A stretch of DNA of 64,000 nt, from assembly GCA_963737155.1 (NCBI GenBank), contig CAVTRN010000002.1:1024001-1088000 (forward strand), read 5' to 3'. A model generated the notes under the pieces. That model saw only the letters and a program-made list of their open reading frames with translations, searched no databases and was not told the origin of the DNA. Shown here piece after piece: positions 6,637-54,490 of the stretch. How positions within the stretch are numbered: the first letter of the stretch is position 1; every line of letters begins with the position of its first letter. Origin of the DNA: Nitrospirota bacterium (GTDB lineage Bacteria > Nitrospirota > UBA9217). A program made the translations under genes and the position numbers.

Positions 6637-6721
6637 GCAGGTATGGCGGAATTGGTAGACGCGCCAGACTTAGGATCTGGTGGGTTCCCCCGTCCGAGTT
6701 CGAGTCTCGGTACCTGCACCA
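6637..6721 (+). tRNA. tRNA-Leu(TAG)
   Basis: Acceptor gcaggta/tacctgc, D-loop ttggtagac, anticodon stem ccaga-CTTAGGA-tctgg, long variable arm, GTTCGAG T-loop, encoded CCA. Confidence 0.96.
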
Positions 6722-17797: not shown

Positions 17798-18832
17798 GTG
17801 TGCCGAGCATGTTTGAATGCTTGGAAGTGCTAGTCCTCTTTACCCAGCCTGATGGAGGCGAAATGTTATCGAGTCGTAAGGGCACCATCGTGAGTTGGGT
17901 GCTGAAGGAAGCGTAGAGCAAAACTGCGGCTTGAAGAACAGAAACCTGAGACGAAGCAAACGTGGTCGGACTAGCTGGCTGATGACTGCGAAGTCCGCAT
18001 CCATCAAAGGTGCACAGCGTCAATCTGTCAGGTGTACGGTGAAGGCGGTCGAACTACTTCGGGAGCTCTGGGTTGTTTCTTGAAAACAAAACTGAGGAAA
18101 CCATGAGGGTTCCTGATCCTGACGCAGAAGTCATCAAAGGGCAAGATAGACATGTGTAGTCGTCTTCCTCGATTGGGACAATCGCGCGAAAGGGAAGACA
18201 CGAATGGCCCGGCATGGTGTAAATGTAGCGGCAAATAGGACGCACGACTTATGGATGGTCAAGCGGCAAAAATCCAATTGGAACTGGCCGTTTACGGAGG
18301 CAGAAGGTAGGGATGAAGCCCTATAACGGCCGGAGAAGGGGCCGACCGTCTTCGGCGAAGAGCGCAACGAAACGCCCGGCGACCGAACAACTTAGGGCTG
18401 AGTGTGCGAGCGAGAGAACATAAGTAAGACGTTACGGATGGTCATACGCAATCAGAGGGCCCTTGGCATCGACGGGCACGATTGTTAAGGAGCTGCGGGA
18501 CTATCTGCTTTACCTTGACCCGTCATACGGGAGCAGCTCACAACCGGTCAGCATAAACCCGGGCACGGTTAAGCGCGTGACCACCTCTAGGCCGGATGGC
18601 GGGGAACACAAACTCGGCATATTCACCGCCCTCTACCGATTTATTCAGCAGACGATCCTGTAAGTGCTGCAACCAAAATGGGACAGCACGTTTAGTGACC
18701 AAAGCTGTGTGTTCCATCCCGGACGCTCGGCGTATCGGGCCGTAGACAAGGCGCAAGATAATATTGGCCAAGGCCAGGAATGGACTTGGGAGAAGTTTTT
18801 TTGGCCGAGTCAACCGCGATATGCTGATGAGG
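17798..18832 (+). mobile_element. Truncated, degenerate group II intron (class C-like)
   Basis: 5' GTGTGCCG directly after a terminator hairpin; D1-like cccagcctgatggaggcgaa...ctgaaggaagc...aacagaaacc; followed by a decayed RT; no D5/D6 seen. Confidence 0.8.
18251..18832 (+). pseudogene. ltrA: Group II intron reverse transcriptase/maturase pseudogene (N-terminal RT0-RT3 only)
   Basis: Fragments LGIDG..VKELRDYL, KRVTTSRPDGGEHKLGIFTALYRFIQQTIL*VLQPKWDSTFSDQSCVFHPGRSAYRAV, EKFFGRVNRD with stops and frameshifts. Confidence 0.85.
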
Positions 18833-39740: not shown

Positions 39741-40106
39741 TTACGCTTGAGCCTGACCAGCCTCTGCTGCCTTGTCGGCGTCTTTCTTCTTTGGTTTCGG
39801 AGCTGGCTTGGTGCGCAGTTCTTTCACCAGCTTAACGGTCAAGAATTTGATGACCGCATCGGTCATCTTATACGTACGCTCTAGTTCGATCACGGCCGCA
39901 GGCGCGGCATTGAATTGGAAATACGCATAGTGGCCGCGCTTCTGTTTTTTGATCTCGTAGGCCAGCTTTTTCTTGCCCCAATCCTCGAACTTTAGCATTT
40001 CGCCGCCCTGCTTCGTAACGACTTCCTGCATCTTCTTGATGATGCCGGCAGTCTCTTCGTCCGTGAGGTTGGCGTTGATGATGAAAATCGACTCATAAAT
40101 AGGCAT
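39741..40106 (-). CDS. rpsF: 30S ribosomal protein S6
   Basis: YESIFI, WGKKKLAYEIKK. Confidence 0.97.
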   Translation of the reverse strand: MPIYESIFIINANLTDEETAGIIKKMQEVVTKQGGEMLKFEDWGKKKLAYEIKKQKRGHYAYFQFNAAPAAVIELERTYKMTDAVIKFLTVKLVKELRTKPAPKPKKKDADKAAEAGQAQA

Positions 40107-40116
40107 GAATGTTTCT

Positions 40117-40163
40117 CTCCTTATGGGTTATAGCCCCCCGCATACTCGCGAGGGGCAAGGAGT
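40117..40163 (-). promoter_or_regulatory. S6:S18 ribosomal protein leader RNA
   Basis: mRNA actcctt-gcccct..ggggggc-tataaCCCat-aaggag: 5' CUCCUU pairs with the Shine-Dalgarno, with an inner hairpin and CC loop motif. Confidence 0.7.
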
Positions 40164-40340
40164 AATCCCGCTTTCGTGGCGCAACTTGCTTCTGCGGAAG
40201 GGGAATCGACCTTACTCTTTTTTGGAATTAGAACATTATCACAGACAGGCTGAGAAATCAAGCCTTTTCTCGGGTTTTTTGACTCTTCCTCGTTTTAACT
40301 TGCAATTGCCTGTAGCTTGCTACAGGGTCACCGCATAGAG

Positions 40341-40417
40341 GGAAGAGTTTGAGAAACCGCAGGTTTCTCAAAAGATAATCGTCTTCCTTTTTATAGATAC
40401 CCCGCAGCTTGCTGCGG
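40341..40417. repeat. Twin perfect hairpins resembling an IS200/IS605 or REP-like element end
   Basis: tttgagaaacc-gca-ggtttctcaaa (40348-40372) and ccgcagc-tt-gctgcgg (40402-40417). Confidence 0.45.
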
Positions 40418-40768
40418 TGCGGTTATTACACCCGTACTTCTGTGCGGTGAGCTTCAGTGTTCCGAAAGATTTTTACAGCAGATGTGGCTATCATCTCCGC
40501 TGCCTCTGTGAACAGAATCAGCAGTGGCTGCCAGCAGCAACGGTGCCCATCTCGGGAACCTACGGCGTTCAAGCTGGAGGATGCCAGCAGGGCGTAAAGA
40601 TTAGCCCGTCCAAGGTGAATTGCCCTGTCCGCAGAGCCAAATGGGCCGTAAAGGTGATATTCGACATTGCTATCCCCTTGCCCGAACAAGACTATGGAAA
40701 ACATTGGTTTTTTTTGCCAGCTTCTACCTTTTTCATCGAGGATTTCATGTTGCTGCCAGCATTTTTTA

Positions 40769-40797
40769 TTGACAAAGGACGCATACTGTTTTATTAT
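40769..40797 (+). promoter_or_regulatory. Sigma70 promoter of the aminotransferase-hom operon
   Basis: TTGACA-N17-TATTAT. Confidence 0.6.
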
Positions 40798-40859
40798 CAA
40801 ATTTACTTTTAAATTACACGGTTAGAAGAAGAAATCCTTTGAAAAGGAAAGGGTTAGAG

Positions 40860-42035
40860 ATGCGCGAGCAGTTCGGCAGGATCAAGAGACTGCCGCCTTA
40901 TGTTTTTGCGATTGTCAACACAATGAAAATTGAAGCCCGCAGACGGGGTGAGGACATCATCGATCTCGGCATGGGCAATCCTGATCAGGGGACCCCACAG
41001 CATATTGTTGATAAATTGATTGAGGCAGCCCAAAATCCGAAGAACCACCGCTATTCCGCGTCCAAGGGCATCACTAAATTACGTGCCGCGGTCTGTGACT
41101 GGTACAAACGCCGATTTGATGTTGATCTTGACCCTGAAACGGAAGCGGTCGTAACAATCGGGTCCAAGGAAGGGTTGTCCCACTTGGCGCTTGCCACGGT
41201 CGAGCCGGGCGATGTGGTGCTAACTACGACGCCGGCCTACCCTATTCATCCCTATGCCGTGATTATCGCCGGCGGCGAGGTGCGATCCATTCCGCTCGGG
41301 AAGGACAGAGACTTTCTGTCCGACATGCAGGAAGCTTATAAGAACACTTGGCCGCGGCCCAAAATGCTGATCATCAATTTTCCGAACAATCCTACGACTG
41401 CGGTTGCGGATTTGGCGTTCTTCCAGGGGATTGCGGATTTTGCTCGGGAAAATGACATGATTGTGGTCCATGACCTGGCCTACGCTGACCTGAATTTCGA
41501 CGGATACCGGGCGCCAAGCTTTCTCCAGGCAAAAGGTGCGAAGGATGTCGGCGTGGAATTCTTCAGTCTCACCAAGAGCTATAATATGGCAGGCTGGCGC
41601 GTGGGATTCTGCTGCGGCAACAGGGAGGTTGTCGGCGCCCTGATCAAGATCAAGAGCTACCTGGATTACGGCATGTTCCAGCCCATTCAGATTGCATCGA
41701 TCATTGCTCTCAACGGGCCCCAGGAGTGCGTAAAGGAAATATCGGACATGTACCAGTCCCGCCGGGATGTCCTCATCGATGGGCTGGAAAAGGGGGGTTG
41801 GAGAATAGAGAAACCCAAGGCCACCATGTTCGTCTGGGCCGAGATTCCCGAGCCGTTCAGGAAAATGGGGTCCCTTGAATTTTCGAAATATCTCATTAAA
41901 GAAGCAAAAGTCGCCGTATCACCGGGCGTCGGATTCGGCGAGTACGGCGACGGCTATGTGCGGTTCGCGCTCATTGAAAACGAACACCGCCTGCGCCAGT
42001 CGGCAAAAGGTATCAAACAGGCCTTAAGTAAATAA
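40860..42035 (+). CDS. PLP-dependent class I/II aminotransferase (AlaC / LL-DAP aminotransferase-like)
   Basis: [41 protein letters not shown]. Confidence 0.92.
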
Positions 42036-42127
42036 CAGGTGCATGGGACAGGGGGCAAGGGTCGCAGATAGGCATTATTCATGGTCACGAACCCTTGACT
42101 CGTGACCCGAACTTGAACGGGGAAAGC

Positions 42128-43444
42128 ATGATTTTGAATAAACCAATCAACGTTGGCATCATCGGATTCGGCATCGTGGGTGCGGGAACGGCCCGAATCC
42201 TTGTAGAGAATGCGGAGATTATCCGGAGAAGGCTTGGCGCGCCTGTTGTGTTGAAAGCAATATCTGATCTCGACATCAAGCGCGACCGTGGTATCAAGCT
42301 CGATGGCGTGAAGCTTACGACCCGTGCACAGGATATTTTCACTGATCCCGAGATAGACATCGTTGTAGAACTCATCGGAGGATATAAGCCCGCCAGGGAG
42401 TTCATTCTCGAAGCGATCAGGAATAAAAAACACGTGGTGACCGCGAATAAGGCGCTCCTTGCAGTTCACGGCGAGGAAATCTACACTGCCGCGGAAAAGG
42501 CAGGCGTGACGCTGGGATATGAAGCATCGGTGGCCGGAGGAATTCCTATCCTGGCTGCTGTCAGGAGCGGACTTGCTGCAAACAACATTAAGTCCATTTA
42601 TGGAATCGTAAATGGGACCTGCAATTACATCCTGACGCTCATGACGAACGAAGGAAGGAAGTTCGACGAGGTGTTGAAGGAGGCCCAGGCCAAGGGCTAT
42701 GCCGAGGCGGACCCGTCCTTCGACATCGAAGGCATCGACTCGGCGCACAAACTGGCTGTTCTTGCCATGCTCGTTTTCGGCACGCCAGTCAAATTTGAGG
42801 ACATCTATACGGAAGGCATCTCACAGATCACACCGCTCGATATCGATTTCGCACGGGACTTGGGCTACAAGATCAAGCTCCTGGCAATCACCAAAATAGT
42901 CGATGGCGAGATCGAAGCGAGGGTGCATCCGACGATGCTGCCGGAGAACTATCCCATTGCCACCGTCGATGGAGTATTTAACGCGCTTGCAGTTGTGGGC
43001 GACGCGGTGGGATCTACCATGTTCTACGGTCGGGGCGCGGGAGACTTGCCTACAGGCAGTGCCGTGGTGAGTGATATCATTGAGATCGGGAGGGACATTC
43101 TCGCTGGCTGCGCCAACCGGGCGCCTGTGACGGCGTTCCGGGATCGGAAACAGCTTGCCATCAGAAAGATGGACCACATAATGTCGTGCTATTATCTCCG
43201 GTTCTCGGCGCTCGATAAACCGGGTGTGCTGTCTCGGATCACTGGAGTGCTCGGAAAGAATAATATTAGCATCTCATCGATGATACAGAAGGGACGCCAG
43301 GTGGATGAGGCCGTTCCAATCGTGATGATGACTCATGATGCTGTAGAGCTGGATGTCCGCAAGGCGCTGGATGAAATCAAGACCTTGGACTGTGTCGCCG
43401 GAACGGCGGTCGTCATCAGAGTGGAAGAGGGAAAGCAGGGATGA
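42128..43444 (+). CDS. hom: Homoserine dehydrogenase with C-terminal ACT domain
   Basis: GFGIVG, VVTANK, EASVAGGIP, GIVNGTCNY, GYAEADP, DKPGVL. Confidence 0.96.
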   Translation: MILNKPINVGIIGFGIVGAGTARILVENAEIIRRRLGAPVVLKAISDLDIKRDRGIKLDGVKLTTRAQDIFTDPEIDIVVELIGGYKPAREFILEAIRNKKHVVTANKALLAVHGEEIYTAAEKAGVTLGYEASVAGGIPILAAVRSGLAANNIKSIYGIVNGTCNYILTLMTNEGRKFDEVLKEAQAKGYAEADPSFDIEGIDSAHKLAVLAMLVFGTPVKFEDIYTEGISQITPLDIDFARDLGYKIKLLAITKIVDGEIEARVHPTMLPENYPIATVDGVFNALAVVGDAVGSTMFYGRGAGDLPTGSAVVSDIIEIGRDILAGCANRAPVTAFRDRKQLAIRKMDHIMSCYYLRFSALDKPGVLSRITGVLGKNNISISSMIQKGRQVDEAVPIVMMTHDAVELDVRKALDEIKTLDCVAGTAVVIRVEEGKQG

Positions 43445-43448
43445 CATT

Positions 43449-43706
43449 ATGAGCGAAGAGATCAAAGCTGACACAATGATCGATATAAAGGGGCAGGTCT
43501 GTCCCTACACCTTTGTCCGATCAAAACTGACTATTGAAAAAATGAAACTCGGCGAGGTGCTCGAAATCGTGACCGACCACAAACCTGCGTCGGAGAATGT
43601 CCCCAGGAGCATGGAGAATGAGGGACAGAAGGTCTTGAAAATAGACCAGACCGGGGAAAAAGAGTGGCACATCTTTGTTCGCAAGGACAAAGAGAAGAAA
43701 AAATAA
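43449..43706 (+). CDS. tusA: TusA-family sulfurtransferase
   Basis: IDIKGQVCPY, GEVLEIVTD. Confidence 0.88.
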   Translation: MSEEIKADTMIDIKGQVCPYTFVRSKLTIEKMKLGEVLEIVTDHKPASENVPRSMENEGQKVLKIDQTGEKEWHIFVRKDKEKKK

Positions 43707-43824
43707 GATTGTTACAAGCACGGCTGAATGCGGATTAAGAGACAAACTGTGGAAGGGGTTTTTTACCGTATGTATCCCTCTGTTTCTGAAGCGCAGGGAG
43801 CCGTGGTTATGGATATGGGTTACT

Positions 43825-44628
43825 ATGGACTTTACCGAAGATCAAATACTGCGTTACAGCAGGCATATCCTGCTCCCTGAAGTAGGTGGCGATGGGCAGG
43901 AGAAACTCCTGCAGGCAAAGGTTGTGCTGGTGGGGGCTGGCGGCCTCGGTTCACCGGTTGGATACTATCTTGCCGCGGCAGGAGTCGGGACCATTGGTGT
44001 GATAGACAACGACCGCGTGGAGATGTCGAACCTACAGCGCCAGATCGCTCACAACACGAGCAGACTCGGGATGTCCAAGGCCGATTCCGCGAAAGAGACG
44101 TATGAGACGTTGAACCACGATGTGAAGGTTATTACGCACAAAGAGCGGCTGTCGTCAAAGAACATTTTGGACATCATCCGGGACTACGAAATTGTAGTGG
44201 ACGGGAGCGATAACTTTCCCACTCGCTACCTCGTGAACGACGCCTGCGTGATGCTCAAAAAAACGCTCGTGAGTGCGGCTGTTTTCCGGTTCGAGGGGCA
44301 GGTGATGACCATTTTCCCAGGTTCGGGCCCCTGCTATCGATGCCTGTTCGAGGTTCCGCCGCCGCCCGGCATGGTGCCATCCTGCCAGGAGGCGGGTATT
44401 CTGGGTGTGGTAACTGGCGTGATCGGAACAATCCAGGCAACGGAAGTCGTCAAGACAATCCTCGGCATCGGTCATCCGCTGAAGGGAAGGCTTCTCTTGT
44501 GGAACGCGCTTGACATGAATTTCCGTATCGTGAAGGTGCCTCGGAACAGGGAATGCCCGGTTTGCGGCGAACACGCAACGATAAAAGAACTGATCGATTA
44601 TGAACAGTTCTGCTCCATGAGCCACTAA
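43825..44628 (+). CDS. moeB: ThiF/MoeB-family adenylyltransferase
   Basis: RYSRHI, GAGGLG, SNLQRQ, DNFPTRY, CYRC, CPVC; no rhodanese domain. Confidence 0.92.
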   Translation: MDFTEDQILRYSRHILLPEVGGDGQEKLLQAKVVLVGAGGLGSPVGYYLAAAGVGTIGVIDNDRVEMSNLQRQIAHNTSRLGMSKADSAKETYETLNHDVKVITHKERLSSKNILDIIRDYEIVVDGSDNFPTRYLVNDACVMLKKTLVSAAVFRFEGQVMTIFPGSGPCYRCLFEVPPPPGMVPSCQEAGILGVVTGVIGTIQATEVVKTILGIGHPLKGRLLLWNALDMNFRIVKVPRNRECPVCGEHATIKELIDYEQFCSMSH

Positions 44629-44733
44629 AGGCTGTGCACGGCTGTGCATTGCTAGTCCGGTGGATACGGGATTTCCTCGACACCGGACCTTAGCGATGCC
44701 ACTGACCGGAACGAGAGCCGAGGTCCTTTCTCC

Positions 44734-45150
44734 ATGTTGACGATACAAAGGGCCGATGTCCAGGCGATATTTGACCACTGCAATCGCGAGTATCCGAATG
44801 AAGCGTGCGGGATTCTTGCCGGCAGAGGAACCACTGTTGAAAAAGTCTATTCGCTGACGAGCGAAAATCCGAGCCCGACGTTTTATCAGATAGAAGCCCA
44901 AGAGCAATTCCGGGTCCTCAGGGAGATGAGGGACACGGGAAGGGAATTGGTCGGCATCTATCACTCCCATCCCGCCGGAAGGGCATATCCGTCTTCAACG
45001 GATGTGGAGTTGGCGTTCTATCCGGAAGCCGTGTACGTTATTGTTTCACTTATCGAGCGAAAGGATCCGTGCGTGAAAGGGTATACCATCATCGACGGGA
45101 AGGTGACGGAAGTTTCGTTGAACATTACTGTGGAGGAGCATCAACAGTGA
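44734..45150 (+). CDS. JAB/JAMM (M67) metallopeptidase, Mec+/HcyD-like
   Basis: PNEACG, IYHSHP....PSSTD JAMM motif. Confidence 0.92.
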   Translation: MLTIQRADVQAIFDHCNREYPNEACGILAGRGTTVEKVYSLTSENPSPTFYQIEAQEQFRVLREMRDTGRELVGIYHSHPAGRAYPSSTDVELAFYPEAVYVIVSLIERKDPCVKGYTIIDGKVTEVSLNITVEEHQQ

Positions 45151-46379
45151 CCTTTGTCAAGGGACTCCGGTGCGTGGAGTGTGGCAGGGAATATAAGTGC
45201 GAACCCCTCTACGTATGCGAGTTCTGCTTCGGTCCGCTTGAAGTCGACTACGACTACGCACGGATCAGGAAGGATATGACAAAGCAAAAGATCGAGTCGC
45301 GTCCCTGTAATATGTGGCGCTATCGTGAACTTCTGCCTGTCGACGGTGACCCGGTCACGGGTTTCGATTCCGGTTTCACGCCACTGGTGAAGGTTCGGAA
45401 CTTGGCCGAAGCATGGGGCGTAAAAGAAATTTATCTTAAAGACGATTCAGTGAACCACCCGACGTTGTCATTCAAGGACCGTGTTGTCGCGGTGGCTGTA
45501 ACGAAAGCCAGGGAATTCGGTTTTGACACCGTTGCCTGCGCATCGACTGGCAACCTGGCGAATTCCCTTGCGGCTTTGTCTGCTCGGGCAGGCATGAAAC
45601 GGTTTATCTTCACGCCGTCGAACCTGGAATATTCGAAGACCATCGGTTCACTGATTTATAAGCCAAATCTGGTTATGGTGGATGGCGCCTACGATGAGGT
45701 TAACCGGCTTTGCTCCGAAATTGCGGATAAATATCGATGGGCCTTTGTGAATATCAACCTGCGGCCTTTCTATGGCGAGGGTTCGAAGTCCATGGGTTTC
45801 GAGATTGCTGAACAGCTGGGCTGGAAAACACCGGACAATATTGTGGTACCCAATGCAAGCGGATCTCTCTTAACGAAGCTCTGGAAGTCATTTAAAGAAC
45901 TGGAAACAATCGGGCTCGTCCCGGCCGTCAAGACCCGGGTATTCGCCGCACAGGCCGCCGGCTGTAATCCAATCATAACGGCCATCAGGGAAGGAAGCGA
46001 CATCATCAGGCCGGTGAAACCTCGGACCATCGCACGATCGATCTCCATCGGAAACCCGGCTGACGGCTATTACGCCGCAAAAGTAACCAGGGACTCCGGC
46101 GGATACGGTTCCGATGCAACGGATGAGGAGATTGTGGACACGATACAGAGTCTTGCCGAGACTGAGGGGATGTTTGTGGAGCCCGCGTGTGGCGCGACCG
46201 TGGCGGTGGCCAAAAAGCTTGTGGACTCGGGCCGGATAAATAGGGACGGGACACTCGTTCTCTGCATCACTGGCAACGGGCTTAAGACCGCCGAGGCAAT
46301 CGCGGACCGGCTCACGATGCCGGTGCCGATAAAACCGAACATTGAGTCTTTCGAGGAACTGATGAAGAAAATCCACTAG
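45147..46379 (+). CDS. Threonine synthase-family PLP enzyme (ThrC-like; possibly homocysteine-forming MetM-like)
   Basis: N-terminal CxxC..Cxx[36 protein letters not shown]; GTG start overlaps the JAB stop. Confidence 0.9.
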
Positions 46380-46488
46380 TTACTTCAACACAGGCATCGC
46401 GGAGCAACGATTCATGCTGACCGTTGTAGAACTCGGTGACGCGTGCCCGGTTTTAAAATACGTTTTCTCTCGTCTAGGAGGAGCGACC

Positions 46489-46767
46489 ATGTCGATTAAA
46501 GTGAGAATCCCCACACCGCTGCAAAAACTCACCGGCGGAAAAGCTGAGGTGGAATGCGACGCAAAAAATGTTTTAGAGCTTGTCGATGTTCTTGAGAAGG
46601 ATTACCCCGGGATAAAAGAACGGCTGTCGGACGGCGGGAAGATCCGGCGGTTCATCAATATTTACGTGAATGAAGAGGATATCCGCTTCATGAACAAGGA
46701 AGAAACAACACTCAAAGACGGGGATAGTATTTCCATCGTTCCCGCCATTGCAGGCGGACGCTGTTAA
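46489..46767 (+). CDS. MoaD/ThiS/CysO-like sulfur carrier protein with C-terminal extension
   Basis: [28 protein letters not shown]. Confidence 0.92.
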
Positions 46768-46873
46768 TGCCCACATCCGCAATCAGAGGCTGGATCGCGT
46801 AGACGAAGCTTTTTTGGCAGGTGTTGTCTTTTTCACCGTCTACGCTGCGGCACCGCGGACTTCAGGAGGGAGC

Positions 46874-47119
46874 ATGGCGACAAAAAGGGTCAAGTTGACG
46901 TTTCCGCAGGAACTGATCAAGGAGCCCATCATTTTCACCATGGCGAGGCAGTTCAATATAATGCCGAACATCCGCAGCGCCAAGGTCACTGAAAGCGTGG
47001 GCGAGGTTATGCTGGAACTTGATGGCGAAGAGAATGAACTTGCGGCTGGCATCGCCTATCTCAAGGAGCGCGGCGTCAAGGTAGATGCTGGCGAAGGTGG
47101 TGATCCGGCAGGTTCTTGA
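46874..47119 (+). CDS. Stand-alone NIL domain protein
   Basis: KLTFP..LIKEPII..MARQFNIMPNIRSAKV....GE..LELDG. Confidence 0.82.
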   Translation: MATKRVKLTFPQELIKEPIIFTMARQFNIMPNIRSAKVTESVGEVMLELDGEENELAAGIAYLKERGVKVDAGEGGDPAGS

Positions 47120-47202
47120 GACGAAGTTGATGGTGGTGAAGGGGCGTGGCGATTCGGTTCGAGTGAAGCCGGACTCAGGGAGCCTGGACTGCAATTATCT
47201 AT

Positions 47203-48447
47203 ATGAAATATATCATTTTACTCGGTGATGGAATGGCTGACCGGCCCAATGTGGAACTTGGCGGCAAGACGTGCCTGCAGGCAGCAAAGACGCCGAACCT
47301 CGACCGGCTGGCGACAGCAGGAAAAATCGGCATGGTGCACACTGTGCCCGAAGGGTATCCGCCGGGCAGCGATGTCGCAAACCTTACGGTCATGGGATAT
47401 GATCCGAGAAAGTACTACACGGGCCGCTCCCCCCTCGAGGCCGCTAGCATCGGTGTGGATCTGAGGCCCGATGATGTCGCTTTTCGATGCAATCTGGTGA
47501 CACTGCGCATCACCGGCGGCAAGGAAACCATGTGGGGCAAAGCGCGGAATGCGATCATGGAGGACTTTAGCGCCGGCCACATCACCACGCAGGAGGCAAG
47601 ACTGCTGATCGAAGAGATCGACCGGAAACTCGGTACAGACCGGATACGCTTCTACCCCGGGGTCAGCTATCGCCACCTTATGGTATGGAAGGGCGGCAAG
47701 GACAGGCTTGAGTGCACACCTCCTCATGACATCCAGGACAAGGACATACGGGACTATCTTCCGCGGGGAGACGGTGATGAGACGATCAATGCCTTGATGG
47801 TGGAATCACTGGATGTTCTGGCGGGTCATTCCGTGAACAGAACAAGAATCGAGAACGGTAAGCGACCGGCGAATAGCATCTGGCTTTGGGGACAAGGCAA
47901 GAGACCGAGCATGCCGACGTTCCGGGAAAAGTACGGCATCGAAGGAGCCATGATTTCGGCAGTCGATCTCACCAAGGGGATCGGCATTTACGCGGGGTTC
48001 GAAGTGGTCAATGTGCCGGGAGCGACGGGCTGGCTTGATACGAACTACGTGGGCAAGGCCGAACATGCGCTGTGGGCGCTCAAGACCAAGGACTTCGTTT
48101 ATGTCCATGTTGAAGCCCCCGACGAAGCCGGCCACAGCGGTGATCTCAAGAACAAGATAAAAGCCATCGAGGACTTCGATGAGTTCATCGTGGGCAACAT
48201 TATACACGGCATGAAGCAGTTCGATGAGTACCGCATCATGGTGCTGCCAGACCACCCGACGCCGATTGAGATCAGAACTCACTCGAATGAACCAGTCCCT
48301 TTCATTATTTACGATAATACCCGTGAACGCAACGGAGAGCCGGTTAGCTATGACGAACGGATAGGAGAGCGGAAAGATGCTCTCGATTTTAAAGAGGGCT
48401 ATCAGCTAATGGACTATTTTTTGAGCGGAGCGCATGGAGTAGCATAG
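47203..48447 (+). CDS. apgM: ApgM-family cofactor-independent phosphoglycerate mutase (proposed homoserine kinase subgroup)
   Basis: [41 protein letters not shown]. Confidence 0.9.
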
Positions 48448-48532
48448 CGCGGAGAGCACAGGGCCTTGTCATCTCTTTCTGCACCTCGCGCTCCTTGCAC
48501 TTTGCCGATTGATACAATTTGGAGGAAATAGG

Positions 48533-49756
48533 GTGCTCATAGTTCAGAAATACGGCGGCACATCGGTTGGAAATTCCGAGCGGATCAAGAATGTGGCAAA
48601 GCGTGTCGTCAAGACCAGGGAAGAAGGCAACGATGTCGTAGTTGTTGTTTCCGCCATGAGCGGCGAAACTGACAAACTTATCAATCTGGCGAACCAGGTG
48701 AGCGAGAACCCCGACCCGCGCGAAATGGACATGCTGGTATCCACAGGAGAAAGGGTGACGATTGCGCTTCTGGCGATGGCGATCCAGGCGATGGGGCACA
48801 AGGCGCAATCCTTTACAGGCCGGCAGGCTGGCATCATTTGCGACAACGTCCACACCAAGGCGCGCATCGAAAAGATCACCGGCGAGCGGCTCAAACATGC
48901 TCTGAAGGAAGGGAAAATTGCCGTCGTTGCCGGTTTTCAGGGGATCACGGAAGCGTCTGACGACGTCACGACGCTGGGCCGCGGCGGATCGGACCTTTCG
49001 GCCGTCGCTGTTGCGGCAGCGCTCAAAGCCGATGTATGCGATATCTATACAGATGTGGACGGGGTCTATACAACTGACCCGAACATGGTGCTGCAAGCAA
49101 GAAAGCTCGATAAGATTTCGTATGACGAGATGCTTGAACTGGCGAGCCTCGGGGCCAAGGTGCTCCAGACCCGCTCAGTCGAGTTCGCAAAAAAATACAA
49201 TGTACCGGTAAGGGTGCTCTCGAGTTTTAACGACAATCCGGGAACCCTTGTTACCAAGGAGGATTCCGATATGGAGAAGGTGGTGGTTTCCGGCGTGGCA
49301 TATGACAAAAACCAGGTAAAGGTAACGATCCAGGGTGTGCCGGACAAGCCCGGAGTCGCTGCAAAAATATTCAACACCATTTCCGATAACAATGTGGTGG
49401 TGGACATGATCATCCAGAATATCGGGGAGGGGGGCCTTACGGATATGTCCTTTACCGTGCCTAAAACCGATTCCAAAAAAATTCTGGAGGTCATGAAGAA
49501 GGTGCTGGCCGAGATTGGCGCGAAAAACGTGAATATCAAGGAAGACATTGCCAAGATCTCGATCGTCGGCGTAGGCATGCGCTCCCATTCTGGTGTGGCT
49601 GCCAAGATGTTTTCGGCCTTGGCGCAAGAGGGGATCAACATCATGATGATTAGCACGTCGGAAATCAAGATCTCCTGCGTGATCGACGCAAAGTACACGG
49701 AGCTTGCGGTGCGGGTGCTTCACGAAGCCTTTGAGATGGACAAGGCAGCGAAATAA
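48533..49756 (+). CDS. lysC: Aspartate kinase
   Basis: [22 protein letters not shown], two ACT domains. Confidence 0.97.
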
Positions 49757-49833
49757 ATGCAAGAGTCAGGCGTCGGAGTCATGCTCTTACCTGAGTGCTG
49801 GATTTCGGTTTTCCATCATGATACCAGGATTCT

Positions 49834-51429
49834 ATGAAATCAAAAGTGCAATTATACGATACCACGCTGCGTGATGGCGCCCAGGCCGAGGATGTAAACT
49901 TCTCGGTCGAGGACATGATCCGCGTTGCGCGCAAACTGGACCAGTTCGGCGTCCATTATATCGAGGGGGGATGGCCCGGCTCAAACCCACGAGACGTCGA
50001 ATTTTTTAAACAGATGCGGCATGTCAAGCTGAAGCGGGCGAAACTTGTGGCCTTCGGCGCAACGAGGCGGGCGAAGCTCAAGGCATCGAAAGACCCCAGT
50101 CTGAAAGCCCTCGTTGCATCCGGCGCCTCTGCGGCCACGATATACGGCAAAAGCTGGGATCTGCACGTTCTCAAGGCGCTCAAAACGACGCCTGATGAGA
50201 ATCTCCGCATGATTGGTGATTCGGTGGTGTTTCTCAAAAAGAGCATGAAGGAAGTGTTCTATGATGCCGAGCACTTCTTCGACGGATTCAAGGCAAATCC
50301 TGAGTATGCTATGGAAACGTTGCTTGCGGCCGAAGCCGCGGGAGCCAACTGTCTCATCCTGTGTGATACGAACGGCGGTACTCTGCCTCATGATCTTGAA
50401 GCAATCATCGCGTCGGTCAAGTCGGTGATTACCACGCCATTCGGCATCCACGCCCACAATGACTCCGAGCTCGCAGTGGCGAATTCACTTGCTGCGATCC
50501 GATTGGGCGCGATGCAGGTACACGGCACAATGAACGGATACGGAGAGCGTTGCGGAAACGCGAACCTCTGTTCCCTGATCCCGGCGTTCAAGCTCAAGTT
50601 GGGCATCGATTGCATCTCCAATGCGAACCTGGCGAAGCTGCGAGATGTTTCCCGGTACGTGGATGAACTGGCGAACCTTCCACACCGGAAGCGTCAGCCC
50701 TATATTGGCGACAGCGCCTTCGCTCACAAAGCAGGTGTTCATGTGGATGCCGTAACGAAAAATCCGCTTACCTATGAGCATATCATCCCGGAGTTGGTGG
50801 GGAACAGGCGGCGCATTCTCGTTTCGGATCTTGCGGGCAGGAGCAATATCCTCCAGAAAGCTGCGGAATTAGGGATCCCCCTGACCAAGGACAGCCCGGA
50901 ACTGACCTCCATCCTCAGTAAAGTTAAGGAACTCGAGCATGAGGGATATGAGTTCGAAGGCGCTGAAGGTTCGCTGGAGCTGCTTATGTTGCGGGCTGGG
51001 CGCAGTTACGAATCGGTGTTCAATATGTTCGATAGAATCGACTATCGCATTCTCACGGAGAAACGGAAGGTCGACCCCCATCCGGTGAGTGAGGCGACCA
51101 TTACTGTGGAGGTCGGAGGGAATGTTGAACATACGGCGGCTTGGGGCAATGGTCCAGTGAATGCCCTGGACAAGGCACTGCGCAAGGTGCTGCCGAAATA
51201 CTTTCCCGGCAAGGGGCTTGAGAATATACAACTTCTGGATTACAAGGTCCGCGTGTTGACTGCCGCAGAAGGCACGGCGGCCCAGGTGCGGGTGCTGATT
51301 GAGTCCGGAGATGGCAAGAACCGGTGGGGGACCGTTGGCGTGTCCGAGAATGTGATCGAGGCGAGCTGGCAGGCGCTGGTGGACAGCATCGAGTATAAGC
51401 TGCTGAGATCGTCGCGAAGAAGCAGGTAG
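49834..51429 (+). CDS. cimA: Citramalate synthase
   Basis: YDTTLRDGAQ, EGGWPGSNP, DAEHFFDG, HAHND, GERCGNANL. Confidence 0.92.
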   Translation: MKSKVQLYDTTLRDGAQAEDVNFSVEDMIRVARKLDQFGVHYIEGGWPGSNPRDVEFFKQMRHVKLKRAKLVAFGATRRAKLKASKDPSLKALVASGASAATIYGKSWDLHVLKALKTTPDENLRMIGDSVVFLKKSMKEVFYDAEHFFDGFKANPEYAMETLLAAEAAGANCLILCDTNGGTLPHDLEAIIASVKSVITTPFGIHAHNDSELAVANSLAAIRLGAMQVHGTMNGYGERCGNANLCSLIPAFKLKLGIDCISNANLAKLRDVSRYVDELANLPHRKRQPYIGDSAFAHKAGVHVDAVTKNPLTYEHIIPELVGNRRRILVSDLAGRSNILQKAAELGIPLTKDSPELTSILSKVKELEHEGYEFEGAEGSLELLMLRAGRSYESVFNMFDRIDYRILTEKRKVDPHPVSEATITVEVGGNVEHTAAWGNGPVNALDKALRKVLPKYFPGKGLENIQLLDYKVRVLTAAEGTAAQVRVLIESGDGKNRWGTVGVSENVIEASWQALVDSIEYKLLRSSRRSR

Positions 51430-51478
51430 TTCAGGATGAGGATGGTTCGCCGCCCCGGATTGTGGGCGTTTGCGAGGT

Positions 51479-51913
51479 ATGCGTATGATTGAAGAAGAAG
51501 GCGTAGTGGCCGAGATTGAAGGAAACAACGCCAAAGTGGCTATACTGAAAAAAAGTGCCTGTGAACAGTGCGCGGTCTCGGGTGTCTGTCATCCTGGCGA
51601 CCAGGAATACCTGGAGGCCGCCAATCCGCTGGGCGCCTTGAAGGGCCAGAAAGTCAAGGTCGCCCTTGCACCGCAGGTCTATCTGAAGGCTTCGATCATT
51701 TTGTATGGCATACCTATGACGGCGCTTATCGCCGGCGCCATCATAGCCAAGATTATCGCGCTCCCCTACGTCGGTGATGTCCGTTCCGATTTCTGGGCAT
51801 TCATCGTTGGTGCGTTCTGTACTTTCGTATCGTTTTTATTTCTCCGGTTTTATAACAAAAAAGTTGAAAAGACTCAGAAGTATAAACCTGTGATTGTTGA
51901 GATCCTTGTCTGA
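51479..51913 (+). CDS. RseC/MucC family protein
   Basis: IEEEGVV, KSACEQC....C, LYGIP, two TM segments. Confidence 0.85.
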   Translation: MRMIEEEGVVAEIEGNNAKVAILKKSACEQCAVSGVCHPGDQEYLEAANPLGALKGQKVKVALAPQVYLKASIILYGIPMTALIAGAIIAKIIALPYVGDVRSDFWAFIVGAFCTFVSFLFLRFYNKKVEKTQKYKPVIVEILV

Positions 51914-51947
51914 TGAGCGATCGCATGACGGCAATGGAGCCCTACGT

Positions 51948-52214
51948 ATGAGACTGATAACAAAGCCTGACGAAGCAAGGCGGCTGGCACGGACGATTCT
52001 TTCGGACATCCTCCTGTACAACCAGGCCAAGGTCAAGGAAGGGATTGAACAGGACAGTCTGTTCGATGTCATGACGGAGGAGCTTGCCGAGGGCAAAAAA
52101 TATTACGAAACCATGGTGGATGAAGGAATCCGTCAAGCCAGCAACTTTTTCAACGAGGCCGTCGTGGACGTCCTCGTCAAGCAAGCAGGCAAATTCAAGT
52201 CCGAAATATGGTGA
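51948..52214 (+). CDS. Conserved small hypothetical protein
   Basis: ARRLARTILSDILLYN...EGI helical pattern, plausible RBS. Confidence 0.75.
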   Translation: MRLITKPDEARRLARTILSDILLYNQAKVKEGIEQDSLFDVMTEELAEGKKYYETMVDEGIRQASNFFNEAVVDVLVKQAGKFKSEIW

Positions 52215-52372
52215 CCTTCGGAGAGAGCAATATCTTTGGCGGTTGGTGAAGGTCGCTGTTCCGCGAACGCTTGTGCGATTTTCACGTACGGTTGAATCTG
52301 ATACCTTATAATTTAGACAGGGCATTCCATTTCCTCCATAACAAAATTCATTTTGCTCAGAAGGAGCCGTTT

Positions 52373-54490
52373 ATGCCGAACGCTGATATCAAGGAAGTCC
52401 GAAACATCGCGATCCTCTCGCACGGCGCAGCAGGAAAAACGTCGCTTGCCGATGCCATGTTGTACACTGGAGGTGCCGTCGATCTCCTGGGAAGCGTAGA
52501 CTCGGGGAACTCCGTGTTCATGCATGAACCGGAGGAAATCGCACGAAAGATTACCATTACTTCGGCCGTCGGGTTTGTAGACTGGAAAGGCGTTCGCATC
52601 AATATTGTCGATACGCCCGGCTATATCAACTTCCTGGAGGAGACGCGGGGCACCCTTCGGGCTGTTGACGGTGCTGTTCTCATTATCTCCGCCATCTCCG
52701 GCGTAAAAGCCGAAACCGAAAAAATCTATAAATTCGCCTGTGACTATGAAGTCCCCCGCGTGGCATTTGTGAGCAAGCTCGACAAGGAACGCGCCGATTT
52801 CTTCCGTGCTGTGGGAGACATGGAAAAGTATTTTTGCAAGAATGCTCTCGTACTGCAGCTCCCCATTGGACTAGAGGATAAGTTTTCCGGAGTCGTTGAC
52901 CTCATTAAAATGAAGGCGCTGATATTTGCCACGGACGGAAGCGGCAAGACTGAGGAAAAGGACATCCCGGCGGCAATGAAGGACGAAGTTGCAACCTATC
53001 GGAAAAAACTGGTGGAGCAGATCGCCGAAACTGAGGACAGCCTACTCGAAAAATATCTGGATAAGGGTGATCTCCCCGAGGAGGATATTATTGCCGGCCT
53101 GAAACACGGCACAGTGGGTGGCGGGCTGCTGCCCGTATTGTGTGGTTCGACGGTAAAAAACATGGGGATCAGCCCACTACTTGACATGATTCTCCTTTGC
53201 CTTCCTTCCCCCGCGGAACGTGCGCGTATTGTGCAGATCAAGGGAACCAACCCCAAAACAGGCAATGAAATAGTACGCAAACCGGTTACCGACGACGGAC
53301 TAGCAGCGCTGGTGTTCAAGACCATTAATGATCCCTTTGCAGGAAAGCTTTCTCTGGTGCGCGTTTTTTCGGGAACACTTAAGGCCGACGCGACAATTTA
53401 TAACGCGTCGCGCCAGGTGAAGGAAAAGGTTGGCTCTCTCTTTATTGTTCAGGGGAAAAAACAAGTGCCAACGCAAATCCTTGCATCAGGACAGATTGGT
53501 GCGATTGCAAAACTCAAAGAAACACTCACAGGCGACACGCTCTGTATTGAGCACGACCCTATTATCCTGGACTTCGCGAAGTTCGCTGATCCGGTCATAT
53601 CCTATGCTATCGCGCCGAGATCCCGGGGGGACGAAGACAAGGTGAGTACAGGAATCCATAAGCTCCTTGAGGAAGATCCAACGCTGAGATTCGCCTATGA
53701 CGAGCAGACCAAGGAAATGGTGCTGTCCGGCATGGGGCAGGTTCACCTCGAAGTGACGCTGGAGAAGCTCAAACGGAAATTCGGCGCCGAAGTGACGATG
53801 AAGACCCCGAAAGTGCCTTACAAGGAAACGATCAGAACCAAGGCAAGCGCCCAGGGAAAATATAAAAAGCAGACCGGCGGTCACGGCCAGTACGGCGATG
53901 CCTGGCTCGAGATCGAGCCCCGCCCGCGCGGCATGGGGTTCGAATTCGTAGACCGGATCGTCGGCGGAGTGATACCCCGTCAGTATATTCCGGCCGTTGA
54001 AAAGGGCGTGATGGAAGCCATGCACGAAGGCATTATTGCCGGCTATCCCATCGTTGATATCAGGGTCACGGTGTATGACGGTTCCTACCACAGTGTTGAT
54101 TCATCGGAAATGGCCTTCAAGGTCGCCGCGTCGATGGCCTTCAAAAAAGCCATGGAGGCAGCAAAGCCCGTTCTTCTTGAGCCGATCATGAGCGTGGAAG
54201 TAGTCGCTCCCGATGACACGCTTGGCGCGGTGATTGGCGACCTGAACTCGCGGCGCGGCAAGGTACAGGGCGTTGTTCCCCAGGCCAACGGCCAGGCAAT
54301 CAAAGCTATGGTGCCGATGTCCGAGATGCTTTCCTATGCGCCTACGCTCAATTCCCTGACAAGCGGACGGGGAATGTATACCATGGAATTTTATGGCTAT
54401 GTAGATGTTCCGAGTCACCTGGCGCAGAAAATCACTCAGGAACGGGCTGCCCAGCACAGCCACGGCAATCACCACGAAAAGGAAAAGTAA
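52373..54490 (+). CDS. fusA: Elongation factor G paralog (EF-G2 type)
   Basis: HGAAGKTS, DTPG, GMGQVHLE, KKQTGGHGQYG, DGSYHSVDSSEMAF; not in an rpsL-rpsG operon. Confidence 0.92.
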   Translation: MPNADIKEVRNIAILSHGAAGKTSLADAMLYTGGAVDLLGSVDSGNSVFMHEPEEIARKITITSAVGFVDWKGVRINIVDTPGYINFLEETRGTLRAVDGAVLIISAISGVKAETEKIYKFACDYEVPRVAFVSKLDKERADFFRAVGDMEKYFCKNALVLQLPIGLEDKFSGVVDLIKMKALIFATDGSGKTEEKDIPAAMKDEVATYRKKLVEQIAETEDSLLEKYLDKGDLPEEDIIAGLKHGTVGGGLLPVLCGSTVKNMGISPLLDMILLCLPSPAERARIVQIKGTNPKTGNEIVRKPVTDDGLAALVFKTINDPFAGKLSLVRVFSGTLKADATIYNASRQVKEKVGSLFIVQGKKQVPTQILASGQIGAIAKLKETLTGDTLCIEHDPIILDFAKFADPVISYAIAPRSRGDEDKVSTGIHKLLEEDPTLRFAYDEQTKEMVLSGMGQVHLEVTLEKLKRKFGAEVTMKTPKVPYKETIRTKASAQGKYKKQTGGHGQYGDAWLEIEPRPRGMGFEFVDRIVGGVIPRQYIPAVEKGVMEAMHEGIIAGYPIVDIRVTVYDGSYHSVDSSEMAFKVAASMAFKKAMEAAKPVLLEPIMSVEVVAPDDTLGAVIGDLNSRRGKVQGVVPQANGQAIKAMVPMSEMLSYAPTLNSLTSGRGMYTMEFYGYVDVPSHLAQKITQERAAQHSHGNHHEKEK

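Follow-up and report, generated by a model that had tools for sequence, protein, structure and literature searches.

In Wolinella succinogenes, homocysteine is said to be formed by the HcyS/HcyD/HcyF/MetY system (reportedly the work of Krishnamoorthy and Begley in 2011), in which a JAMM-type protease removes a C-terminal extension from a small carrier protein, an E1 enzyme activates the carrier, and the carrier thiocarboxylate then leads to homocysteine. The CysO/CysM/Mec system of Mycobacterium tuberculosis reportedly joins a carrier thiocarboxylate, a JAMM hydrolase and a CysM-type pyridoxal phosphate (PLP) enzyme to make cysteine from O-phosphoserine. Here we analyze a related locus in a 64,000-nucleotide (nt) stretch of the genome of a Nitrospirota bacterium (the window; contig CAVTRN010000002.1, positions 1,024,001 to 1,088,000 of the forward strand), where a ThrC-like gene (45147-46379; positions are those of the window unless a contig or locus is named) lies in an aspartate-pathway operon together with a sulfur-carrier relay. 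The nearest described counterpart is the MetM/MetO/Mec/MoeZ route of Streptomyces albulus (Hasebe et al., 2024, Appl Environ Microbiol, as summarised in PMC13759103 and PMC12172450), and metM of that species has an S-adenosylmethionine (SAM) riboswitch upstream (PMC12172450). GapMind 2026 includes the Streptomyces proteins MetM, MetO, Mec and MoeZ, notes that MetM frequently goes under the wrong name of threonine synthase, and predicts a diverged Mec for the Nitrospirota species Dissulfurispira thermophila (PMC13759103).

We propose that the ThrC-like gene probably encodes a MetM-type, carrier-dependent homocysteine synthase that acts on O-phosphohomoserine, and that the cell's threonine synthase is another gene. 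A sequence-only reading of this stretch had already suggested that an enzyme automatically annotated as threonine synthase makes homocysteine, and comparative evidence now supports that core idea. The protein scores 271.8-272.7 bits on the threonine synthase model TIGR00260 (cut-off 167.1), falls just under the cut-off of NF006050 (301.9 versus 303) and matches solved ThrC structures with 194 bits at most. Among database proteins, its nearest relatives carry Nitrospirota names. The ratio of nonsynonymous to synonymous substitution rates (dN/dS) is 0.096 against a 91%-identical orthologue, with operon neighbours at 0.03-0.24, and the gene of the sulfur carrier starts 109 nt downstream.

The regulation and the neighbourhood of the orthologues, both directly observed, carry most of the argument. 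We scanned species-representative genomes, confirmed 598 of 600 candidate stretches and kept the best 80. These 80 orthologues are 52-66% identical to the window protein and come from Nitrospirota, Planctomycetota, Verrucomicrobiota, Chloroflexota, Acidobacteriota, Thermodesulfobacteriota, Actinomycetota, Aquificota and others. Among the 20 shortest of the 80 loci, Rfam places a SAM-I riboswitch directly before the orthologue in 10. We then built our own SAM covariance model from eight Rfam-found riboswitches and ran it on the 80 loci, the window and the locus of a second ThrC described below. Strong SAM-I matches were found at 38 of the 80 loci and a weak one (25 bits) at L088, every one on the strand of the gene; for 37 of the 38 strong matches, 65-332 nt separate the end of the riboswitch from the orthologue that follows, and the remaining one lies ahead of hom and the orthologue. 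Such riboswitches indicate that the orthologues are regulated as methionine genes. None was found at the three closest public loci (L020-L022).

Within 6 kb and on the same strand, a carrier gene accompanies 70 of the 80 orthologues, a NIL gene 45, an E1 gene 24, a JAMM gene 16 and a TusA-like gene 6. A quick maximum-likelihood tree (97 rows, LG+G4), to be read with its long branches among paralogues in mind, places the 81 MetM-like sequences together (SH-aLRT 99), apart from the ThrC and CysK-like paralogues encoded at these loci, and riboswitch-bearing members stand on both sides of the deepest split in the MetM-like clade. The three closest loci, all Nitrospirota and 64-66% identical, carry the MetM-like gene, carrier, NIL, a short ThrC, homK and lysC; cimA comes next in two of them and was not seen in L021. 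The short ThrC of the relatives' operons matches Aquifex ThrC (2zsj) with 508 bits, and in the nearest relatives outside the window genome's family (L020-L022, G036, G027) a canonical ThrC shares the operon with the MetM-like gene.

Nitrospira-type loci (L041, L048, L050, L052, L053, L068, L072) have the gene order of a CysK-like gene, an E1, the MetM-like gene, carrier, NIL, a second E1 and JAMM. Two E1s and a CysK-like gene round one carrier hint that the carrier may serve both cysteine and homocysteine synthesis there.

The rest of the window genome (G000; two contigs, 4.84 Mb, rated 100% complete) also points to a separate threonine synthase. The sequence-only reading had proposed a search for a second thrC, and two ThrC-family genes indeed exceed the TIGR00260 cut-off. 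The second (ThrC2; contig 2, 1149336-1150751, minus strand; TIGR00260 216.6 bits) is 26% identical to the window protein and of plant type, matching Arabidopsis threonine synthase 1e5x with 556 bits. Its reading frame shares 8 nt with the one full-length Cys/Met-PLP gene of the genome, the weaker PF01053 matches in the genome spanning about 120 of 381 positions, and the pair occupies 1148132-1150751 of contig 2 on the minus strand (L002/L019). The closest solved structure for the Cys/Met-PLP protein is plant cystathionine gamma-synthase (CGS; 1qgn/1i41, 362.9 bits; next 302). No SAM riboswitch was found at this locus (L019).

The proposed look for metA and metX came out that reading's way too: the genome search returned no MetA/HTS, a best MetX match of 31.7 bits, below cut-off, and no DUF39/HcyBio. 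For metB and metY, which that reading had likewise proposed to look for, the answer is mixed, as one Cys/Met-PLP gene, the plant-type CGS homologue, is present; it touches on the canonical met pathway that the same reading had counted as evidence against itself. The presence of this homologue makes a parallel O-phosphohomoserine route possible, and the window genome may hold two routes to homocysteine. No ThrB over cut-off was found in the genome (best 27.3 bits versus 168.25), so HomK would make the only activated homoserine. A Bacteroides member of the HomK family complements E. coli thrB, and the name HomK comes from GapMind 2026 (PMC13759103).

Three further ThiS-family genes occur in the genome, one a MoaD-MoaE fusion and one beside an aldehyde:ferredoxin oxidoreductase; the fusion indicates that the molybdenum cofactor (Moco) has its own carrier. 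Two further ThiF-family E1 genes lie elsewhere, in neighbourhoods (L016, L017) that show no carrier and no clear role. At L017 (contig 1, about 1061500-1068200), a nitrogenase-like cluster includes the ThiF-family E1 and a radical-SAM gene along with a fused Oxidored_nitro protein, a FeMo-co-binding protein and P-II.

Gene content, distribution among genomes, the orthology group and the control of the orthologues are observed; in the mechanism that we propose, every chemical step and the parts played by TusA and NIL are predicted from these comparisons. LysC, Asd (encoded elsewhere), Hom and HomK would supply O-phosphohomoserine. The carrier would be made as a precursor ending in GG-RC, from which the JAMM protease would remove Arg-Cys and expose Gly-Gly; the MoeB-type E1, which has no rhodanese domain, would adenylate the terminal glycine, and the TusA-like protein would bring sulfur as a persulfide to give the carrier thiocarboxylate (carrier-COSH). 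With carrier-COSH as nucleophile, the MetM-like enzyme would swap the phosphate of O-phosphohomoserine for sulfur, yielding homocysteine. Threonine would come from the separate plant-type ThrC elsewhere in the genome, and the small NIL protein would act as a conserved accessory subunit, perhaps sensing methionine or homocysteine. The earlier statement that the operon encodes the path from aspartate to homocysteine in full goes too far, since Pfam and NCBIfam profiles place no asd among the operon genes and the path is therefore not covered in full.

The carrier and the JAMM protein have the features that such a mechanism would call for. The carrier ends in AIAGG-RC, a Gly-Gly followed by two capping residues; G89 and G90 are invariant among 41 carrier sequences, and carriers adjoining orthologues share a C-terminal PA(I/V)AGG. 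The MPN+/JAMM motif consists of Glu, HxH, Ser and Asp, and the JAMM protein contains NEACG and HSHPAGRAYPSSTD, which cover these positions; it stays below the cut-off of the desampylase model (83.7 versus 130 bits). In eight loci (L024, L025, L026, L028, L030, L032, L037, L043), carrier and NIL form a single protein (ThiS 1-91, NIL about 96-165) whose Gly-Gly is internal, as in ubiquitin precursors, and a JAMM gene is present in all 7 such loci with enough sequence. Together, the internal Gly-Gly and the accompanying JAMM gene support the processing step. At an Actinomycetota metagenome-assembled genome (MAG) locus (L035:9235-10302), the carrier is instead fused onto the N-terminus of its E1.

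The E1 carries two CxxC pairs and no rhodanese domain (PF00899 alone in 267 amino acids, aa), and its 340.3 bits on the MoeZ model NF005902 (cut-off 647) leave it with the MoeB type. A rhodanese domain occurs in just 2 of 19 operon-linked E1s tested at orthologue loci. The conserved cysteine of TusA is expected in a CPxP motif; here it sits in VCPYTF (CPYT), and the TusA-like protein is under all NCBIfam equivalog cut-offs (YedF 57 versus 79; TusA 20.2 versus 78). This CPxT/N subtype recurs near the orthologue in L030, L032, L033, L035 and L037 and in the operons of the family. The suggestion that TusA replaces a rhodanese as sulfur donor is thus plausible as far as the E1 and the recurring TusA subtype go, and because the E1 is without a rhodanese domain, we infer that the TusA-like protein supplies the sulfur. 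In a Mariprofundaceae MAG (L049, 4949-7327), a sulfite reductase with a C-terminal TusA domain lies just downstream of the MetM operon. The NIL protein appears as a conserved accessory companion of the carrier, perhaps a methionine or homocysteine sensor. In the literature searched, no paper was found that describes NIL or TusA as belonging to a MetM system.

We further investigated the distribution of the system in 41 Nitrospirota genomes: the window genome, 24 of its family and 16 from outside it. Of the 16 genomes outside the family, 12 hold the MetM-like gene at full length (54-66% identity). Short ThrC is also found in 11 of these 12, with none seen in G025, and in G039. The MetM-like gene and the carrier were both not found in three non-family genomes, two of which (G026, G035) bear HcyBio. 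In G040 the operon reads aat-hom-ThrC-homK-lysC-cimA, with no relay. The fullest form is that of G036: aat-hom-tusA-moeB-jab-MetM-carrier-NIL-ThrC-homK-lysC-cimA-rseC-fusA.

The family itself behaves differently. Plant-type ThrC and the CGS orthologue (at least 75% identity) are found in 22 of its 24 genomes, adjoining wherever both could be located, and the carrier in 21, the operon of the other three being unassembled or broken at contig ends. The MetM-like gene is present in only 7 of the 24: G003 (twice), G005 (where it is frameshifted, as are hom and homK), G008, G011, G015, G022 and G023 (a piece at a contig end). In each of the 15 genomes with the carrier but no MetM, the carrier comes straight after jab and the remaining order is unchanged as far as the contig reaches (aat-hom-tusA-moeB-jab-carrier-NIL-homK-lysC-cimA). 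No MetM remnant was found between jab and carrier in the four MetM-less genomes inspected for it (G001, G019, G020, G024; gap 15-164 nt); in the same four, the carrier PAIAGG plus 1-4 residues, the JAMM motif and the TusA VCPYTF are all intact, and dN/dS of the relay is 0.002-0.15 where dS is unsaturated. On a tree of the operon proteins Hom, MoeB, HomK and LysC, MetM presence needs 5 changes, at least two of them forced by well-supported branches, which with MetM-bearing outgroups reads as repeated loss of MetM. MetM-less family genomes showed no HcyBio/DUF39 and no MetA, and MetX in G016 only.

Three apparent cases of decay or replacement were set aside. A 100-N scaffold gap interrupts the seemingly truncated MetM of G039, and the split MetM of G005 is an assembly artefact, hom and homK being split too in the same operon. 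In G016, a relay seemingly lost with MetX gained was rejected, as homK was also not found and the operon is probably unassembled. In the G003 bin the whole operon occurs twice (L121, L122), with MetM-like genes 90% and 79% identical to that of the window; the second of these operons has hom, tusA and moeB near the window (dS about 0.5) and MetM to lysC far from it (dS saturated), which suggests either recombination inside the operon or a mixed bin.

The tie between relay and ThrC-like enzyme that the sequence-only reading implied is therefore looser than supposed, as the relay persists without the enzyme in 15 of 22 inspectable family genomes. Because the relay is kept, under selection, without MetM in most of the family, it probably has a second acceptor there. 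The obvious candidate is the plant-type CGS homologue, whose arrival in the family goes together with the dispensability of MetM; failing that, the client could be a CysK/CysM-type enzyme. MetY of Wolinella, which has the same fold as CGS, and CysM of M. tuberculosis are both said to use a carrier thiocarboxylate. The relay could thus have been re-wired or shared, the carrier also feeding the CGS homologue, which would then be a carrier-dependent O-phosphohomoserine sulfhydrylase; we put this forward tentatively, as somewhat doubtful. If true, it would combine a Wolinella-type acceptor fold with the substrate of plants and Streptomyces, and would explain why MetM was repeatedly lost while TusA, E1, JAMM, carrier and NIL stayed selected inside the hom...lysC operon, and why family genomes need no MetA, MetX or DUF39. 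Taken further, the relay might mainly serve such another acceptor, the CGS homologue or a CysK/CysM-type cysteine synthase, leaving the ThrC-like gene a redundant leftover or a carrier-independent enzyme. Several points speak for this: an operon from which MetM alone is missing, intact relay motifs under low dN/dS, the five changes on the operon tree, the CGS orthologue beside plant-type ThrC, the lack of HcyBio and MetA with MetX in a single genome, and the reported chemistry of MetY and CysM. A cysteine-synthase-like gene also lies about 2 kb or less from the MetM-like gene in 11 of 16 non-family genomes and 10 of 80 loci. We nevertheless find it unlikely, as the MetM-like gene of the window is intact, translationally coupled to JAMM by their overlap and under purifying selection, the carrier adjoins the MetM-like gene in 70 of the 80 loci from other phyla, mostly with no CGS nearby, and no physical or genetic link between CGS and carrier emerged among the tests made here. 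A CysM-like gene as obligate client of the relay is not supported either: an orthologue is also present in the relay-less G026 and G035, and the CysM-like enzyme therefore does not need the relay.

It is less probable still, indeed very unlikely, that the gene encodes a genuine or bifunctional threonine synthase next to a carrier system for Moco, thiamine or tRNA thiolation. Its TIGR00260 and NF006050 scores and its place among the threonine-pathway genes hom, homK and lysC would fit such an enzyme, and a cyanobacterial homologue is reported to have weak threonine-synthase and deaminase activities (PMC12172450). However, a separate plant-type ThrC exists in nearly all family genomes, the 15 without a MetM-like gene included, canonical ThrC is co-resident in the operon of relatives, and what precedes 38 of the 80 orthologues is a SAM riboswitch rather than threonine control; Moco, for its part, has the MoaD-MoaE fusion, with two more ThiS-family and two more E1 genes elsewhere. 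We give very little weight to a last reading, in which carrier, E1 and JAMM protein form a ubiquitin-like conjugation system resembling SAMP/UbaA/desampylase of archaea and have no part in amino-acid synthesis. These are the best NCBIfam names (SAMP1 49.3, SAMP-activating E1 UbaA 334.1 and desampylase 83.7 bits), but none reaches its cut-off (60, 450 and 130), linkage of the carrier to the MetM-like gene and to SAM riboswitches is tight across phyla, and relay-less genomes carry another homocysteine route.

Several observations count against a MetM-type function of the window gene. Its membership in MetM is drawn from context and regulation, from which we infer orthology to S. albulus MetM (A0A059WBP2); no Streptomyces entry appeared among the best 80 public loci or in two protein searches, and the search with an Actinomycetota orthologue returned Acidimicrobiia-type entries only. 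The window itself has no SAM riboswitch by Rfam or by our own model. Two of the 18 genomes with a full-length MetM-like gene (G015 and G025, in 210 and 470 contigs) show no other ThrC over the cut-off, which makes a bifunctional enzyme conceivable; such blanks occur anyway, as G026, 97% complete, shows no ThrC at all in the same search. The gene is dispensable in the family, the plant-type CGS homologue could form homocysteine or cystathionine from the same substrate, and G040 is without any of the homocysteine routes searched for. Finally, MetE (PF01717) was not found in the window genome, with one weak match among the 41 Nitrospirota genomes, nor was the homocysteine-binding domain of MetH (PF02574), which is also missing from 22 of 24 family genomes and present in 12 of 16 other Nitrospirota. 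This leaves the step from homocysteine to methionine unexplained: no known methionine synthase was found in the window genome or in 22 of 24 family relatives, which points to a further gap in methionine synthesis.

The layout of the operon is given in Table 1. Start codons of the open reading frames were checked against the sequence, and domains were assigned by Pfam and NCBIfam profiles with curated cut-offs. All nine genes that the sequence-only reading had placed at 42128..49756 are there, on the plus strand and at the coordinates it gave; so are the 4 nt between hom and tusA and the overlap of JAB with the ThrC-like gene, where the JAB stop and the GTG start share the 4 nt GTGA. The remaining intergenic spacers measure 61-118 nt. 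All sizeable genes from 40839 to 54490 are on the plus strand, with rseC and fusA following cimA in the same orientation. The gene order was found again in 21 more family genomes and in one genome from another family of the phylum, and this recurrence in relatives argues that the arrangement is not chance.

Table 1. Features of the operon and its flanks in the window. Scores are in bits; values after "vs" are model cut-offs.
Feature	Coordinates	Strand	Evidence
Promoter-like site TTGACA-17-TATTAT	40769..40797	+	11/12 hexamer matches, before the aminotransferase gene; weak evidence, site number no higher than in shuffles
Class I/II aminotransferase (aat), first gene of the conserved order	40839..42035	+	PF00155 204; NF006033 alanine transaminase 653.4 vs 647; syntenic in relatives
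hom, homoserine dehydrogenase with C-terminal ACT domain	42128..43444	+	PF00742 223.9; NF004976 553.7 vs 205
TusA-like protein, 85 aa	43449..43706	+	PF01206 70.2 vs 28.6
MoeB/ThiF-type E1, 267 aa	43825..44628	+	PF00899 276.8 vs 28.1, sole domain; NF004281 MoeB subfamily 298.9 vs 266
JAMM/MPN+ (Prok-JAB) metalloprotease, Mec/HcyD-like, 138 aa	44734..45150	+	PF14464 92.5 vs 25
ThrC-fold PLP enzyme (MetM-like), 410 aa, GTG start, N-terminal four-Cys ribbon	45147..46379	+	PALP 219.1 vs 35
ThiS/MoaD-type sulfur carrier, MetO-like, 92 aa	46489..46767	+	PF02597 64.2 vs 22.5
Stand-alone NIL-domain protein, 81 aa	46874..47119	+	PF09383 63.9 vs 24
homK, apgM-like alternative to homoserine kinase	47203..48447	+	TIGR02535 569.9 vs 446.3
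lysC, monofunctional aspartate kinase with ACT domains	48509..49756	+	NF005155 652.2 vs 346
cimA, citramalate synthase, next in the conserved order, outside the sulfur route	49834..51429	+	TIGR00977 761.3 vs 450; syntenic

The promoter-like site marks a possible start of the transcription unit. No terminator-like site was seen on the plus strand between 40274 and 52500, site counts being no higher than in shuffles. No Rfam family, riboswitches included, matched 40000-50500 at gathering thresholds or at an E-value of up to 1. Elsewhere in the window, a tRNA gene lies at 6637-6718 (plus strand), and a match to group II intron domain D1-D4 (RF02001, 81.7 bits) at 17884-18053 (plus strand).

Outside the window, at L018 (contig 1, about 911093-919235), a cysteate synthase gene (TIGR03844, 460.2 bits versus 324.9) adjoins a fused sulfopyruvate decarboxylase, downstream of genes for a corrinoid-binding protein, a RACo-type activase, DUF6951 and a CCG/4Fe-4S protein. 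The group forms a coenzyme-M-like or sulfonate module, here within Nitrospirota.

Altogether, the pathway itself is not new: it was published in 2024, is included in GapMind 2026 and was already predicted in Nitrospirota (PMC13759103). What is new is that family genomes (15 of 22 inspectable) keep the whole relay, under purifying selection, and are without MetM only. Automatic annotation would see a threonine synthase here and an organism without a homocysteine route; the corrected reading would fill this gap for a sulfur-cycling phylum. The window presents the fullest system in one transcription-unit-like block, from the supply genes hom, homK and lysC through a TusA-like donor, E1, protease and carrier to the enzyme and NIL. 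The family around it amounts to a natural experiment, in which close genomes differ only in MetM and all keep the relay and the plant-type ThrC/CGS pair. Other clients of MetO-type carriers, thiocarboxylate use by bacterial plant-type CGS and the function of NIL thereby become testable questions.

Compared with the published prediction for Dissulfurispira thermophila, the window shares the phylum and the predicted pathway (PMC13759103). The part of GapMind 2026 that deals with this pathway, as far as consulted, gives no operon anatomy, TusA, NIL or relatives that keep the relay without MetM (PMC13759103).

The likeness to the S. albulus route, as far as the summaries describe it, extends to a ThrC-fold enzyme beside a ThiS/MoaD-type Gly-Gly carrier, a JAMM protease for maturation, an E1 for activation, O-phosphohomoserine as the sole activated homoserine available, and SAM-riboswitch control, which here applies to the orthologues. 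Unlike the E1 of S. albulus, a MoeZ, that of the window is of MoeB type without a rhodanese domain, and a TusA-like CPYT protein is found in the operon instead. The window further adds a NIL protein, takes its O-phosphohomoserine from HomK rather than ThrB, and embeds the genes in a hom...lysC operon with no riboswitch.

With M. tuberculosis, the window would share a carrier thiocarboxylate, a JAMM protein and a PLP enzyme with a phosphorylated amino acid as substrate, whereas the CysM-like gene is here unlinked to the relay. The plant-type pair, about 79 kb away and outside the window, recalls the O-phosphohomoserine branch point of plants, ThrC2 being nearest plant threonine synthase 1 and its neighbour nearest plant CGS, with substrate and sulfur donor of the CGS homologue putative here. 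The acceptor of Wolinella, MetY, is said to have the Cys/Met-PLP fold and to act on O-acetylhomoserine, whereas in the window a ThrC-fold acceptor would act on O-phosphohomoserine. The CGS homologue of the window genome shares the fold of MetY, and would be a Wolinella-like acceptor if the carrier does feed it.

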